DNA of 64,000 nucleotides from Saccostrea cucullata (taxonomy: Eukaryota): positions 1 through 64,000 of the forward strand of contig NW_026930714.1 of NCBI RefSeq assembly GCF_032062105.1. The letters are read 5' to 3'. Both the position numbers and the translations under genes were made by a program. Of the stretch, positions 25,178 to 35,395 are shown one piece after another. The notes under the pieces were generated by a model. That model was given only the letters and a program-made list of their open reading frames with translations, made no database searches and was not told the origin of the DNA. Each line of letters begins with the position of its first letter. Within the stretch, counting starts at the first letter, position 1.

Positions 25178-26013
25178 TATTAAAGGAGGATGTTTTTTTT
25201 ATGGATCGCCAATTATTTTGTGCTTATCATGATACATAGGTATAACTAATTAAATATGAAAAAACCACGGGAATGAATGTTGGAGTGGGAGAGGGGTTCT
25301 AAAGTATCTGTGTTTGCTCTCTACAGAAAACCGCAGAAGTAATAACAAATCAGGTTATTCCTTGGTGTAAAAGCTTAGGGATATTATTGCATGAACCCTG
25401 TCGTCCACACAGAAAATGTATTTCGTAAAAGAGAGGTGACTAGTTTGCTATTGGACAATGACTACTCTGCTCTAGAACTAAAACTTGCCCTAAAGACAGT
25501 ATGCCCTTCTCAAATAAGAACAGACTTTAAATTAGCAAAACTCACAACTTATCAAATAAAGTTACAGAAATTCTTGAGTTTGTATTCGTTAAGGGCATAT
25601 AATATGCCCTTCTCAAAAAAAACAGACTTTAAATTGGCAGAAATGTTCACAAATAAAGAACTTATACAAGAAACTTAGTATACAGAAATTAACTGTGAAA
25701 TCACAGTTTGTATTCGTTGTTTTAAGGGCATATAATTCAAGAAATGCAAAATATTACATATATTCTCAACAATTTCATGAATTTAAATATGCACCAAGAG
25801 TATCATTTGACCCCACGAAAATATGTGATTTTACATGCTTACGATAAAAACTTGTTCGAAAATAAGAAAAGAAGGGAAAGGAGCGTAAAGATAAAGAACA
25901 TAAAGTAAGTCTGCAAATGATAATTTTTTTAAGAAAAATCAAATGTTTATTGATAGTCAGAAAATGATGCTACGGTTTCCTTTAACATAATTATTCAGTA
26001 TACATGTATATAA

Positions 26014-28350
26014 TTAGTGAACGCCAAACACAACTGAACTTTCGTTATCACCGGCAAATATAACATACATATCTCGTATGTCATTAGAATTGTCATGCGT
26101 TTTGATTCCTGCTATTTGTCCGAGTCCTGGAAGATCTTTGGCTGTCGGTATTGCCCAGCTTAAAACGTCTCCTTCCATTTGAATGACGTAATTTTTATTT
26201 TGTGACCTGTTGATTCCTAGCGATTTACATAGATCAGAAAAAGCCACAGACGGCCCATTTACTAAAGTAGCAGTAAAAACTAAATGATCTGCAGCATTCA
26301 CGTTAGATCTTGTTACCATGATGTCAGATGTTATCATCGCTTTTGATTTCAGAACCTGAGAAATATTAATGCTTTTAATTATATTTCCTGAAAACGGAGA
26401 AATTTCGAGGATGATTTCTTTATTGCTGTGAACTGCCCAGACTGAAGAAGGTTCCTGTCTTTCTCTTTCACTTCTCCGTGTGGTGTCCCGCAGTGGACCA
26501 AACTTCTCCCATATTCCATCTTTTCTCTTGTCTATTGTATGTTGATCATTATTACCTTCTTCGTACGTTGCCATTGATGATAATGAAAACTCTGTCTTGA
26601 ACAGAATTTCAGGTATATTAGAAGTCCGGTTGTCCTGAATGGCCCAGAATTTGGTATTTCCGGTTCCGGTCCCGGATGGGGCCGGAAGACTGACATAAAC
26701 AGTGTCCGTATCCGAGTTCACCATGACACGAGGTGGAACCTTCTCTGTGTCACGTGGTTTCTCTTCTTCCTCTTGATCGAAGAAAACCACGTTTCCTCGA
26801 TTCATTGTCTTCTTTGGTTCTTCCATTTCAAAGTTGATCACCCAAGATATATGTAGTCTATCAACCATTCTTGGAATCACATCAATTGCATATAGACGGC
26901 GCATGCCTAGATTTCCTGGCTCCTGAAAACATTACGACAGAATTATAAAACGATAGACATACAAATCGAAAATCACCCTGAAATGATTGAAAAATATAAT
27001 TATTTTTACGACCTTGCTTCCTTCGGGAATAAACTGGGTTAGCACATACGCCCGACGACCAGATATTACAGGACTGAAAATCGGATGGAATGTTCCATTG
27101 ACCCGTTCAAGTTCACCAGGAAAAGGTATATTGGCATGCGCAACACCATCTAAGCGATTGATATAAATGTAGAATTGCATATTCAAAGTATAACTCAATC
27201 TATAGCATTAAATTTTGAGTGTATAAAATTCAATATTCATCTTAAAATGGCATACCAGGAAAATAACTGATGAGATATCCGTTCTTAGACACAAACACAA
27301 AGATATCGTCTTCCGTTATTGATAAACTAAAAATAAAAAATAGCATAGCTTAAATGTGGTAATTCATAAAGAATACAAGCATTTACTTTAAATTATTTAT
27401 GAAATGGTTCTTACAAAGTATTCATGTTGCATGCTCGTACCCGAGTGAAATATTTTTTCAAAAAATGTATGATAAAATACTAGTATATATGGAGATAATG
27501 AACAGAATTCAAGATTAAATGTCCATAAAACAATACAAAATAGGAGCAGAGCAAACATGGACCTCCAAAACATCAGAGGTGGAATCAGGTGCCGTGGAGG
27601 AGTGAGAATCCCCTGCCGACCGGTCACACACGCCGTGTGCTCCTTGTCATGGAAATAACGGAAAAATCCGTCGACAATTCAGTGTGTAAGTAAAGAAACC
27701 TGAATATAGGATACACCCAATCACTCATTCTTATAACTGGCTTGAGGGTCCCATCATCCATATACAGCACCAGACTATGTCCATCTGATCCGATGACGTC
27801 ACCATAAACATCCATCACCGGAAGAACCGGGAATCTTAAAATGCCATCTCTCCACATCAGATTTCCGGTTGCCACATCAAAACTGATGTACCCCCTGTAT
27901 AGAATTTTACAAAGACCCTAATATACCAACATATTTTGAAAATTGCACATTATTTATTTGGTTTATATATGGTTACAATTTTGTTATCGTAGGTTGGGAA
28001 GTTAGAAACTCTGCAAAAAAGTTTCAATTTCAAAAAAATTAAAAAGTTAACTTTTTTAATAAAAATGTTTTTGTTTACAAAGATAAAACTTACACTTCAC
28101 GAGGTCCATTTGATTGACAGATAATGTTGTTAGCATTTCCAACACAACCAAGAGCGTTTGGTACTGGACCTATGAAAAACTGAGATGTCCAGGCGATTGA
28201 AGCATTGATGGGCGGAGTCAAACTAAAGGAAAATGTCCCGGATGGACGACATCCATAACACGGACAGCTGGATACAAAATCCTGAAGTGATGCAGGGATG
28301 TTTATTAAAACACCCAAAACTGCAAGGCGTGCTATCAATTCAGTTGCCAT
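26014..28350 (-). CDS. Secreted PQQ-like beta-propeller protein, paralog A, ~522 aa, 5 exons (28350-28094, 27894-27700, 27326-27256, 27149-27013, 26922-26014)
   Basis: Signal peptide, CPCYGCRPSGTFS motif and PQQ-repeat-like GYISFDVATGNLMW. All introns GT-AG with phases 2,2,1,0; collinear with paralog B. The gene structure is well supported; the fold call is inference. Confidence 0.85.
27485..27690 (-). mobile_element. Penelope-like 3' fragment in intron 2 of paralog A
   Basis: Reverse complement of 12915-13115. Confidence 0.85.
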
Positions 28351-28752
28351 TTAAATAGGTTATATATCTACCCTTAAAGATGGTCGTACAATGTATATAT
28401 TCAGCTGAGCTATCGCGAGATATTGTTATCTTTAATTGTATGTAATAAAGGGCAACTCTATGTGATCATCTATATACTTAGGTATATTTATCTTATAATT
28501 ATCTATTTTTAAGAAGGATATGGTATAATGTTGTTAAACAATGGACAATGCGTTTAATTTTAGATTTATTTCAAAAATAATAATTACCAGAAGTATTGAA
28601 AAATTAATACATAATTTTACATACATATATATATATATGTACTCTGTTATCCCAAATAAATCATAAGGCGGTACAGATATCGCCGTGTTCATTGATAGAT
28701 AACCACTCCAGTGAGATGACCACGATCACAAGTAGTTAAATAACCAAAGATC
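28351..28752. promoter_or_regulatory. Candidate bidirectional promoter between the divergent paralogs
   Basis: Only 402 bp separate the two ATGs; the spacer contains TATA-like words and TCGCGAGA at ~28413. Confidence 0.55.
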
Positions 28753-31700
28753 ATGGCGGTCACTTTAGTCTCTACTATTGTATTTTTCTCCCTCTTTTGT
28801 GATGTTTATTCACTTCCGGTTGAGAGCTGCCCAATGTACGGCTGTCGTCCGTCGGGGACTTTTTCGTATGTTCTAAGCGTTACTTCTAACGTATCGTTAG
28901 CTTGGCCCAAGAGTTTTGTACAAGGACCGTATGTTAATTCCCTCGGCTGTGCTGCAAACGATGTCAATATTGTATGTCAAGCTAATGGATTACGAGATGA
29001 GTATGTACTAACTTTTTCACATTCATTTTTCTGGGATATAAAAACATCCAACATGTATCTGTGTTAATGCGGCTTAATTAAATTAGCAGTTCACATTTGA
29101 TTTTTTTCAAAAAGTTACTTCTTTTGATTATTTTAGAAAGTATTTTTCACTCATATGGAGACGCCATCACTTGTCGGTGGAGAGTTGCAAATTTTGTTCT
29201 ATACTCGGCACTCAGGGTCATTGAGCAGGGAAGGATTTTTTTGTGCCAGCACCTACTGTGTTTTATATGGTCTCATCCAAAGGACCGGCCTCCACGTCCC
29301 TCATTAAGATTCGAACCCGCGATGTAAGCATCAACTCCTTACTTCGCGACTCTAGAGCAGACGCTCTAACCACTGCCCCACGCGGGCGACCACTTCTTTA
29401 GAATGGTTGTGATCTATAAGTATGTGCATTCCAAAAATATAAACGACAATGAGTTCTGAGAATTAGCCATGAATAAGAATTCGTCTATTTTGATGGACAT
29501 TTATTTTACTTTTGTCTCTGCAGGGGATATGTGACCTTGATTCCAGACAATGGTACAGTAGCCTGGTATGGAGACGTTCTGAGGCGGCCTACATTGCCTA
29601 TCATGGACATTTATGGTGATGTCATTGGTACAGATGGACATAACCTAGTGATGTTTGACGCAGATGGAAAAATAGAGAAACCGCTGATCAATCTCGGGGA
29701 GAGTTTGTTTCCTACTTACAGGTAATTAGAGAAAGGGTTTACGATAAACGTTCTTGATACTTGATATTTTTCACATTTAATCTTTGAATAAATATTATAA
29801 TCCCTCTCTATAGTCTTACACTTTCCGAAGACAACGGCATCATAGCCATTGTTTCACGACAGGGGCTACTGGTTACCAAGGAATCTAGTAAGTCACTTTT
29901 TATCAGATTTTATTATTATTACAAGACATGTCATAATTTTCTTAGTTAGAATTTGAATCAGTGTTTTAAATGTACAGTGGAAACAATACAATTTGTTGGA
30001 TATCTCAAAATGTTGAGGAAAATAGAGCAAGATTATTTACGTCAAGGTCTTCAGTGTTTGTTGTGAATTTCCACCATATTCCTGTAGGTTTTGTTTCTGT
30101 AATTCTTTTCATTGCAAAGTCTATAAACAACAGAAATAGGAATCCAAATATTGTGCAACCCTGCTTATCTCCTGTTGTTATCTGGAACAAGTCATATTTT
30201 TCTCCATCTTCTAGAAATGGACAATGGAATGATTCCTGTAGGAATTTCACCATTTTCACCAATTTATCTAGTCAGAAGGATGTCATAGAAATACAAGATA
30301 GACTAAAACCCCTCTCTATTAATGAAATCGAATGTCTCCTCATGTTCAAGATAGGTTACAATGTTGAGTTCCATTCGGTACATCGATATAGGATATTACG
30401 GAGTGTAATTAGTTGTTCTGTTGTACTCTTCCCTCTTCTGAAGCCAGCTTGTTCCTCACGCAACTCTGTTCCCACTCCATCTTGGATCCTTTGTATCACT
30501 ATTATGGAGAATACTTTGCTCCAAATAAACAAAAGTGCTATACCTCTATAATTATCACATACTGATCTTACAACTTTTCTGGAATCTTCACAATCAGGCT
30601 TTTACTCCAAACCAATGGTATAGTTTCTGGCACCTATTTTTTTATATATATATATATAAATATCTTGCTGTTGCCTTTGTGTCTGCTTTTTAAAACATCT
30701 CAGCAGTAATCCCATCAACTAGCTTCTCCAGCTTTTCCTTTAGTTTCTTTATAGCCTTTATAGCCTTCGTGATCTCTTTTCGTACGGGACTTTTATCTCT
30801 TGCATCCCTTCCACAGTACTTAGTATCTTGTTGAATGCTTTCCTAGCATAAAAAGAAGCTCGATCTCCGATTTTCCTTCCTTGAAATCCTATTAAGTATC
30901 CCTGTTCTCGGATCCAAAGAACCTGCAACTTTTTTAGTCTTATGTCCATGTGTTTTTAATGTTTTAATTTTTTGTTTATCTCTTAAAAAATATTCATTGT
31001 TGAGATGCCACCACTTCCTGGTTGAGGGCTGCAATTTTAGACCTTTGCTGTATTCTGTGGCAGCACCTCCTGCGTCACAGCACCTCAGTTTAATAGGTCT
31101 TATCCGTAGGGAAGGTCTCCGTGTTACAGAGTGGATTAAACCCTCGACGTAAGGATCAGGTCCTTATTTTGTAACTGAAGAACAAACGCTTTGACGACTG
31201 CGGCACGAGAGTCATTAGTCTTTTTAGAGAGTTTACGAATACCAGTTTCCCCTGTGGTGGAGGAATTCAAGGTAGCAAAATGCTGCTTGGTAATGAAATC
31301 AAGTGACTCAGCAGATGACAGGTTTTCAGAAGCTGGGATCCAGACAAGGACAAGAAGAGAGTGGTAAGTAAAAACATCAGTGAATCAGGCAAAAAGTATG
31401 CTATATACAGCTGATATATACGAGACATCTTGGAAACACAAACACTGAGTGACAGGGCGTGGGATTGTTACACTTCCAGCAGTGATTAAAAGCTTCAGCA
31501 TCAGAAAAAGGCACCATGGTTCAGGCTGAAGTACGGCGCACTAAGGTAGATCAACGGAAAGCAAAATCAACTTGGAAAACAGGGGGCCTGGATGAAGTGG
31601 GACTTACCGGAGCGGTAATTAACCTGGGCAGGACCAGTTTAGGGTCTCTTTTCTGCTGAGATCAGTGTATGATACACTCTTATCTCCTGTAAACTTCCAA

Positions 31701-33239
31701 TAGTGGGGGCTAAGCGAAGACCCTATAGCTAAATGCTGCTTGGAAAGAGAGGGATAATGGTGCTTATTATATCAGGATGCCAAGTTTCGCTGACCCAAGG
31801 AAGACACAGTCCTGCGGGAGTTGGCTGGTGTGCTGGAGGCTGAGAGAAGAAGGAAACGACCAGCAGACAAGAAACAGAGACAGATACAGTTTGTGAGACA
31901 GGGTGAAGCAAGGGCTGACACAAGAGGGGCAAGGCGGACCTCAGTGTTGGATAGAGGACAAGACTGGGAGCTCATAGTCAATCTAGACAGGAAGTTAGTT
32001 TTCCCTAACATCGTGGAAACCAACCTAAGACCAGACGCAGTTTAAGTGTCCTAGCAGTCGAAGACTTTGATTGCAATAGAGCTGACTGTGCAGTGGGAAG
32101 AAAATCGTGAGGAGGCACATGAGAGGAAAAGCCTTAAGTATGCAGACCTCTTGGTAGACTGCAGGGATAGAGGCTAGAGTGTCTGGCTGTTTCCAATAGA
32201 GGTCGGCTGTAGAAGTTTCCCATCGCAATCAGTGTGGAAGCTGCTCACTTGATTAGGTGTATCAGAAAAAAGCATGCAAGATAGCAGCAAGAAATCTGGG
32301 AGAAGTAGTCCTTCTGGATATGGCACCGCCGAGATGATTTGTGCTGGAAGTCGGGATCCATCGAGTAGTGGATTGGCCACCACTGCTGACCCAACTAAAA
32401 GATGTCATGGTTTGAGGGCGAAACATCAGGTGAAGGTTGGGGACCATCTGATGACGATCGGAACCGACATTCGAGCACCAGGGGCGGAAGTTACAGATAG
32501 CTACAGGCATGCTTAAGAGTGCCAAGCTAACAGAAGAAAACCATCTTCTGTAAGTGAATACTAGAGGCGTAGAGTAAGTTCATTGTAGTCTCTATGTATG
32601 TCTTGAGTACTACCTCAGAAATAACGCCTGGTGATGCGGTTTGGTTTTAATTTTCAATTAAGGTCAAGATCTAGTAAATGAAAAGTGCCTACAGATTTAT
32701 CAAACTTGAGAAATAAACTCCTTTATTGGTGCTTTACAACTTTAGCTTGGTCAAATAAGGTGAAGTTTCGGGCATAATTTGTAGGTAAACAAGATGAAAA
32801 ACTGTATTTTAAACTGTCATTTTCAATGAAAAAATTAGAAAACCAGTCATGAATATGGGAGTTTTTCTCATATTCGACAAAGGAAATGTATCCAGATTGC
32901 CTACAGTCTCTCAGAAAACGGTAATTAGTTTGTTCATGGCCTCTTCTTTAAATCAATATCAAATTTAATATAGGTATCCGGTTTAATTTTCATATGATTT
33001 CAAATTGAATGTCATAAAAATACCTATTTTCTACATAATTCTGCTAAAGCCGTAAAGTACGGGAAAAAGAAAGTTGAAATTGATTATGACGTCATAATGG
33101 ATCTAGCACCAAAAAAGTAGTCTCAAGTTATTTACTAGATCTTGACCTTAAAGGGCTCTCTTTCTGCTGTCTTTGACTGATGGTCTATCGCGTTCTATAT
33201 ATGCAGATATATAGCTTTCTGTTTGGTTCAATGGTTCTT

Positions 33240-33318
<79 letters not shown>

Positions 33319-35306
33319 CAAAATTAAATCCAAGATAAACAAACAAGTTTACGTTTAATTTTTACACTAAGCGCTTTCGCCGTTACGGCTCTTCATAGTG
33401 TAACAATGATAATAAAAACAATACAACTTCGTTGTTATGACGTCGTTATTATGACGTCACAAAGGCAGCGTTATACATTGGCACAGGTAAATGTCAAAAA
33501 AGCGCCAAATGTATAGAGTTAAACACATGTACATTGTAATAAAATGGAACATTTCTTTAGAGCTAAAATGTTCAATTTACATTTAATTTAGGCTGAAATA
33601 ATTTAACAAAATAATCTTCCTTGGCCCTCCGTAATTGTTCATTATCTTCTGTGATTTTATAAAACGGAAATATCAAAAAGTTTCCATTCGCACATGAATC
33701 AAAATGTTCACTGCAAGGTGTATTCCTGACGGAGGGGTCTCGTATTTGTTGTTTATGGACTCTTACACGGTCAGCTAGTTTGTTACCGGTCTGTCCAATA
33801 TAGTCTTCCCCGCATGAAGTACAAGTCATACAGTATATTAAATTTCTAGTTTTGCATGACATATTCGCATTGACGGTAAACGTTTTACCACATTTAAATG
33901 TAAAATTTTCTCCGGTTTTTAAATAAGGGCAGGTTCCACACAGGGGATCCATACATTTGGCTACAGTGCGTTTTTCCTCATCCGATGAGAATCTGGCTCT
34001 TGTTAGGAGTTTCTTTAGGTTTGGAGGTTGGCGTCGGCTATAGATGATGCTCTTCGGGTCAATTAATTCCTTTAAATTTTGGGATTGCTGTAAAATAGGA
34101 AAACACTGTTTTACGGAGTTATATATATTAAGGTTCCGTGGGTTATGGGTAACGACCAGCGGGATTTCCTTATTGTTTTCCTGGCGTCCTCGTCTAGTAG
34201 AACGGAGATCTGCAGTCGGTATTGACTTGGCCTTTTCAATTGCTATATCTATTAAGTCTTTAGGATATTTTTGTCTGAGCAAAAATGTTTTTAATTCTTG
34301 TAGACGGCCATTTCTTCTGGTTTCATCTATGACAATGGTACAAACACGTCTGTGCAGATCTCCGTTCTACTAGACGAGGACGCCAGGAAAACAATAAGGA
34401 AATCCCGCTGGTCGTTACCCATAACCCACGGAACCTTAATATATATATAACTCCGTAAAACAGTGTTTTCCTATTTTACAGCAATCCCAAAATTTAAAGG
34501 AATTAATTGACCCGAAGAGCATCATCTATAGCCGACGCCAACCTCCAAACCTAAAGAAACTCCTAACAAGAGCCAGATTCTCATCGGATGAGGAAAAACG
34601 CACTGTTGCCAAATGTATGGATCCCCTGTGTGGAACCTGCCCTTATTTAAAAACCGGAGAAAATTTTACATTTAAATGTGGTAAAACGTTTACCGTCAAT
34701 GCGAATATGTCATGCAAAACTAGAAATTTAATATACTGTATGACTTGTACTTCATGCGGGGAAGACTATATTGGACAGACCGGTAACAAACTAGCTGACC
34801 GTGTAAGAGTCCATAAACAACAAATACGAGACCCCTCCGTCAGGAATACACCTTGCAGTGAACATTTTGATTCATGTGCGAATGGAAACTTTTTGATATT
34901 TCCGTTTTATAAAATCACAGAAGATAATGAACAATTACGGAGGGCCAAGGAAGATTATTTTGTTAAATTATTTCAGCCTAAATTAAATGTAAATTGAACA
35001 TTTTAGCTCTAAAGAAATGTTCCATTTTATTACAATGTACATGTGTTTAACTCTATACATTTGGCGCTTTTTTGACATTTACCTGTGCCAATGTATAACG
35101 CTGCCTTTGTGACGTCATAATAACGACATCATAACAACGAAGTTGTATTGTTTTTATTAGTATTGTTTTTATTATCATTGTTACACTCTGAAGAGCCGTA
35201 ACGGCGAAAGCGCTTAGTGTAAAAATTAAACGTAAACTTGTTTGTTTATCTTGGATTTAATTTTGATTTATAACTTAACCTATACCATGGACTTCTACAA
35301 CATTTT

Positions 35307-35395
<89 letters not shown>

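Follow-up and report, generated by a model that had tools for sequence, protein, structure and literature searches.

The hammerhead order in which the cleavage site is followed by GAAA and then by CUGANGA, type SGC, was described by Eckert et al. 2023 from HRIMA-1 and its variants, which cleave in vitro (PMC10085705). By that account, type SGC ribozymes come from metatranscriptomes only, with none in the genomes of known organisms; the text of the supplement gives no retrotransposon example, and the accompanying scheme of six permutations presumes no insertion of more than 1–2 nt beside CUGANGA in block C (PMC10085705). A change at the A9/G10.1 junction has been reported for the CChMVd (+) viroid hammerhead, in which an extra A is tolerated between these two positions (PMC1636495).

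Self-cleaving RNAs are also established in retrotransposons. For Penelope elements, which carry minimal, dimer-forming type I hammerheads, a circular template has been proposed (PMC4209133, PMC6765202), and in one reconstituted element hammerhead mutants showed no loss of insertion, with uncut RNA as the main substrate (PMC11167929). R2 and other non-LTR elements carry HDV-like ribozymes in the 5' UTR, where the cut defines the 5' end of the copies (PMC6765202, PMC13708176). Reviews from 2026 mention HERO elements in passing and, in the passages concerned, name 5' HDV-like ribozymes only.

Here we describe a conserved RNA at the tail of RLE non-LTR retrotransposons. It resembles type SGC in its S, G, C block order, its short linker between stems I and II, a helix that connects these two stems at their far sides and two core pseudoknots, but differs in two respects: block C (CUGANGA with its adjacent stem strands) is uninterrupted in type SGC, whereas here no stem II strand was found within 1–2 nt after CUGANGA, that strand lying 5' of block S with two helices bridging A9 and G10.1; and the motif is found in genomic retrotransposons rather than metatranscriptomes (PMC10085705). 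The circular block order and pseudoknot-free three-way junction of types I–III were likewise not found. As in CChMVd (+), the A9/G10.1 junction tolerates change, the single added base there being replaced in the present RNA by two helices and by the ends of the molecule itself (PMC1636495). With Penelope-like hammerheads it shares a ribozyme in a terminal repeat that arises through partial tandems, an internal start of reverse transcription and a proposed circle; those elements, however, have a reverse transcriptase (RT) of the telomerase-like kind and a GIY-YIG nuclease, whereas the present ones have an R2-group RT, an RLE nuclease and a self-contained six-helix fold (PMC4209133, PMC11167929). 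With HDV-like ribozymes it shares a self-cleaving RNA (predicted here) in an RLE non-LTR element; the ribozyme class and position differ, and no copy starts at the cut (PMC6765202, PMC13708176).

On sequence comparison, we consider it probable that this is a conserved six-helix RNA with a split hammerhead core, whose intact copies are likely to self-cleave and likely to re-ligate into a circular RNA template, and of which the copy described below is a decayed example. The block order is already known as type SGC; what is new is the A9/G10.1 break with its two extra helices. No description of the motif was found in the literature searched, which lay outside subscription journals, Repbase Reports, patents, figures and the ZWD alignment repository.

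The host element and its copy in the window

The locus lies in the window, a stretch of 64,000 nt from Saccostrea cucullata. An intact 1182-aa relative aligned by tblastn to 31233–32264, and the tail of the copy matches 41 places across the genome. These matches bear out the initial annotation, which had placed the motif at the 3' end of an RLE-type non-LTR retrotransposon. The features, by position in the window, are as follows.

31230–32561, plus strand: copy of an RLE non-LTR retrotransposon (HERO-like, 'family A'), 5'-truncated and decayed, ending at 32561 (tblastn, genome matches)
31233–32368, plus strand: end of the broken ORF (RT tail, CCHC knuckle, RLE nuclease), with the stop codon at 32366–32368 within hairpin P0a
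32350–32363, plus strand: 5' strand of closing helix P0, doubling as the last ORF codons (covariation)
32364–32387, plus strand: hairpin P0a, ending immediately before G10.1 (covariation)
32388–32395, plus strand: 5' strand of stem II from G10.1 (32388) and 5' strand of the interaction helix, overlapped here through a 3-nt deletion (sister-copy comparison)
32396–32411, plus strand: 5' side of the kink-turn (mutated here), stem III strand, GUC site and 5' strand of stem I (predicted cut after 32406)
32412–32427, plus strand: short linker, 3' strand of stem II (mutated here), GAAA core and stem III strand
32428–32454, plus strand: kink-turn bulge, 3' strand of the interaction helix, 3' strand of stem I and CUGAUGA core
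32455–32468, plus strand: 3' strand of P0, beginning immediately after A9

The element shows a single ORF, an RT, a CCHC knuckle and a C-terminal PD-(D/E)xK nuclease, as expected of RLE non-LTR elements. RT and zf-RVT were found in the intact relative L081, and a protein search of the genome returned 150 matches, including those of family B, which is young and has intact ORFs of 1,180–1,182 aa (RT, zf-RVT); its nearest structures in the PDB are L1 and R2 proteins. A search of representatives gave 7,039 relatives, without names or context, and none of 219 candidate viral contigs was related. Four relatives (P0182, P0190, P0197 and P0228; 1,311–1,422 aa) carry an additional Pfam domain, PF08719. 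Relatives with names come from molluscs, fish and lancelets, and no fixed target for insertion was seen; on these two points, among others, we provisionally assign the element to the HERO clade. The Tetraodon polyprotein Q7T1J8 is 50% identical to family B over 1,098 aa. It is probably Zebulon, a tandem-forming RLE element that Bouneau et al. in 2003 reportedly described as having a partial tandem structure, as shared by the present families; no ribozyme is known to have been described for it. If this identification is right, the tandem habit was already known and the ribozyme alone is new. A 5-bp repeat at 31225–31229 and 32562–32566 is a possible target duplication, and no consistent one was found among six family B insertions.

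All hammerhead words lie where the initial annotation had placed them and with the neighbours it had given: CCCAAC at 32390–32395, GATGTC at 32401–32406, ATGGT at 32407–32411, GAAACATC at 32420–32427, GTTGGG at 32436–32441, ACCAT at 32443–32447 and CTGATGA at 32448–32454. Its boundaries, 32389 to 32460, proved too narrow, as the conserved domain covers 32350–32468. The expectation that standard hammerhead searches would miss the motif was correct: Rfam searches of the window region and six loci gave no relevant family and no hammerhead match. Our own profile, which includes a sister copy of this family, gave a single match in the 64-kb window, the flagged motif (E 4e-15).

The decay of this copy, also noted at the outset, was confirmed by comparison with 29 sister copies: a 3-nt deletion affects the 5' strand of stem II, the 3' strand of stem II and the kink-turn side carry substitutions, and with the deletion and substitutions stem II does not pair. 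The copy is rejected by the relaxed parser of the motif, none of 30 family A copies passes the strict intactness pattern, and its folding is modest (z −1.9, by single-sequence folding, which cannot show pseudoknots). The window copy is very probably inactive.

A hammerhead core opened between A9 and G10.1

In families A, B, B2 and C of the genome and in the metagenome loci, the blocks follow one order: P0 5', hairpin P0a, stem II 5', interaction strand, stem III, NUH, stem I, short linker, stem II 3', GAAA, stem III, interaction strand, stem I, CUGANGA and P0 3'. The strand that pairs with the 3' side of stem II lies upstream of the cleavage block, where 89 of 90 cells pair across 18 families (registers fitted to pairing); the core is therefore broken between A9 and G10.1. 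The chain runs gapless from A9 into P0 in 16 of the 18 families and from P0a into G10.1 in 17. The hammerhead core as predicted is thus complete and in SGC order, with its backbone opened between these two nucleotides.

The same words could have come from a dimer, or from an ordinary type SGC hammerhead whose stem II lies downstream of CUGANGA. In family A alone, four downstream letters become pairable after a 1-nt insertion. Across the 18 families, however, a downstream partner pairs in 41, 46 or 33 of 90 cells, which is the chance level, and the letters 3' of CUGANGA covary with P0, not stem II. We rejected both readings, which are very improbable: stem II forms in cis with the upstream strand.

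The initial annotation was therefore right that the connectivity falls outside types I, II and III, but the order S-G-C had already been described as type SGC (PMC10085705); likewise, it had called for a pseudoknot or a dimer, and the pseudoknots are present while the dimer is not needed. The CCCAAC/GTTGGG helix that it had seen crossing the core is present and is the counterpart of the SGC helix between stems I and II, with a kink-turn consensus linking it to stem III in 11 of 18 families.

We infer that P0 and P0a, stacked on each other, keep A9 next to G10.1 and make up for the missing bond in the manner of a strand crossover. Stem III would be folded back to the interaction helix by a kink-turn or by a bulge of 5–6 nt. 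The kink-turn consensus (a 3-nt bulge, then tandem G.A/A.G beside a helix), located by sequence match at the junction of stem III and the interaction helix, is missing in the other seven families, which have a bulge or a partial match instead. In the families of L131, L154, L137 and L164, a one-sided bulge of 5–6 nt occupies the place of the kink-turn, a natural swap of bending modules.

Conservation and covariation across families

A scan of metagenomes found 80 related loci in 11 assemblies, many of them from one assembly. After leaving out 11 loci with a flank of <130 nt, a strict descriptor parsed 27 of 69 tails, compared with none of 6,900 dinucleotide shuffles and none of the 69 reverse strands; a relaxed descriptor parsed 57 of 141 loci. 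In a MAFFT alignment of 19 family representatives, hand-picked and intact, 93.1% of 667 cells were paired, a value reached by none of 500 shuffles, with slid partners at 35–41%, and 32 of 36 pairs showed double-sided changes. Stems I, II and III were paired at 98%, 97% and 97%, respectively (for stem I over three countable pairs, owing to gap placement), and all six helices covary: the three stems, the I–II interaction helix, P0 and P0a. RNAalifold, unaided, recovered the nested four, namely P0, P0a, the interaction helix and stem III. The core words and helices that the initial annotation had read from one copy hold up in this alignment, and the six-helix fold is almost certainly real.

A motif profile built from the 19-row alignment, in which 15 of the 80 metagenome loci are included, gave plus-strand matches in 64 of the 80 and no minus-strand match. 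In the matched loci the core letters were near-invariant (C3, U4 and A6 in 60/60; A13 and A14 in 63/63; U16.1 in 62/63), while N7 was free (U 36, A 14, C 9) and H17 avoided G (C 23, U 23, A 16, G 1). Among the representatives, the U16.1–A15.1 pair was UA in 19/19 and the 10.1–11.1 pair was GC in 17/19, with G.A in one family; A11.1 was found in 6 of 62 loci. One family (L134, L146, L160, L172, L185, L186 and L194) has A rather than C at 11.1, giving a fixed G.A at the base of stem II. Motif and helices are kept across proteins of 29–61% identity.

Chance assembly of short words within a decayed repeat would agree with the state of the window copy, decayed and only modestly folded. The absence of any match among 6,900 shuffles, the covariation and the conservation of core letters across such divergent proteins refute it, and we regard its probability as negligible.

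A free N7 and a G-avoiding H17 beside invariant catalytic letters point to selection that acts on the chemistry of cleavage as well as on shape. We judge it very likely that intact copies self-cleave after the predicted NUH site; intact tails are available at L236:1462–1573 (minus strand), L153:447–567, L124:2239–2356 and in L154. The same pattern speaks against a catalytically silent, hammerhead-shaped scaffold whose sole role is to bind the element's protein. That reading, which we hold to be improbable, draws on the position of the motif 45–155 nt ahead of the fixed end, where the RT must start, on an A9/G10.1 break without precedent in the literature searched, and on cleavage being predicted from the sequence.

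The stop codon usually lies within the proposed clamp

P0a holds the first in-frame stop past the last protein match in 39 of the 57 loci parsed and, counted by family, in 12 of 18. In 13 loci (family B and certain copies with frameshifts) the stop is upstream of the domain, in 4 it is downstream and in 1 it is in P0. The 5' half of the clamp is therefore usually coding, and a ribosome terminating there would pull it open; translation would thus turn the ribozyme off. A need for compactness could by itself also account for the overlap of ORF and clamp. A natural helix-gated ribozyme of this kind may serve RNA engineering and gene insertion based on retrotransposons.

Copy ends, tandems and a possible circular template

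Copies share a fixed 3' end beyond the predicted cut. In family B, with a unit of 3,826 bp, all 11 terminal copies examined end 83 nt past the cut, and the fixed end of family A lies 155 nt past it; two family C copies end 2–7 nt beyond the cut, one of them probably through a deletion. At their 5' end, full-length family B copies repeat part of the tail; these repeats measure 165 to 1,402 nt and span the cut. Using the first 401 nt of the unit as a query (30 of 42 matches examined, several of the places being duplicates), we found the unit start at 24 places, 22 of which are preceded by a motif-bearing tail, one by 17 nt of tail and one by nothing. Partial tandems occur in family A too, 5 of 40 metagenome loci continue into a next unit, and the tandem junctions are precise and identical in all tandems. 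Many relatives lie on contigs of 3.5–4.3 kb, about one unit; collapsed tandems or circles would assemble in this way, and the observation is not discriminating.

No copy was found to begin at the predicted cut among 30 copies of family B (of 36 matches), 12 of family A and 22 of family C. This speaks against the cut defining 5' ends as in R2, and agrees equally well with a circular template and an uncut one. By the circular route, a transcript of a partial tandem would carry two ribozymes, and cuts at both followed by joining would yield a circle of unit length. The RT would set off from one internal position, lying 83 nt (family B) or 155 nt (family A) beyond the cut, and continue around the circle, so that 3' ends are fixed, 5' ends vary and copies longer than a unit arise; during translation, a ribosome terminating in P0a would open the clamp and keep the ribozyme off. 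We see the arguments for and against this route as evenly balanced. The cut products would stay joined by ~25 base pairs, so the partner swap needed for closure of the circle is not trivial.

Alternatively, the ribozyme may be active while tandems arise from linear, uncut multimeric transcripts by internal initiation or template jumps, cleavage serving to trim, protect or destroy some transcripts in a regulatory role. The lack of copies starting at the cut in families A, B and C agrees with this, uncut Penelope RNA sets a precedent in vitro (PMC11167929), and a stop codon within the clamp suggests translation-linked control. Against it, 5' repeats of up to 1.4 kb over the cut in single-unit insertions would demand a donor of at least two units every time, and the tandem junctions are precise and identical throughout. 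We consider such linear multimers possible, if somewhat doubtful. RNA reads from 4 of 24 runs (29 and 23 raw reads) show no pile-up of ends and are too thin to count either way.

Taken jointly, the proposal would be a seventh natural hammerhead wiring, beyond the six block orders held to be possible: the core is split at A9/G10.1, a helical crossover with a protein-coding 5' half rebuilds it, and the ribozyme so formed, gated by translation, turns RNA into circles throughout an entire animal clade of R2-group retrotransposons. In this full form we advance it tentatively. It would extend hammerhead topology past the published block model and place non-circularly permuted ribozymes in animal genomes, a first in the literature searched. 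It would also provide an R2-group retrotransposon with a ribozyme in its tail and, probably, a circular template, in convergence with Penelope elements. It would allow a direct test of why these elements make partial tandems, with intact natural copies at hand for assay.

Other features of the window

Downstream of the locus, at 33243–35356, lie C-terminal fragments of Penelope-like GIY-YIG proteins in a partial tandem (33572–34366 and 34440–34997, minus strand; Pfam GIY-YIG), flanked by a 1-kb inverted repeat of 96% identity; no classical CUGANGA–GAAA hammerhead pattern was seen in this interval. The interval 26000–29730 holds a pair of similar genes of several exons, one per strand (ORFs at 28090–28350, minus, and 28744–29067, plus), with a start resembling a signal peptide and a cysteine motif in common; the one exon compared with Pfam gave no match. 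A run of 187 N at 52148–52334 falls in a tandem-repeat region near 52400–53900. The minus strand at 29970–30601 carries decayed pieces of a further LINE reverse transcriptase that on inspection looks RTE-like.
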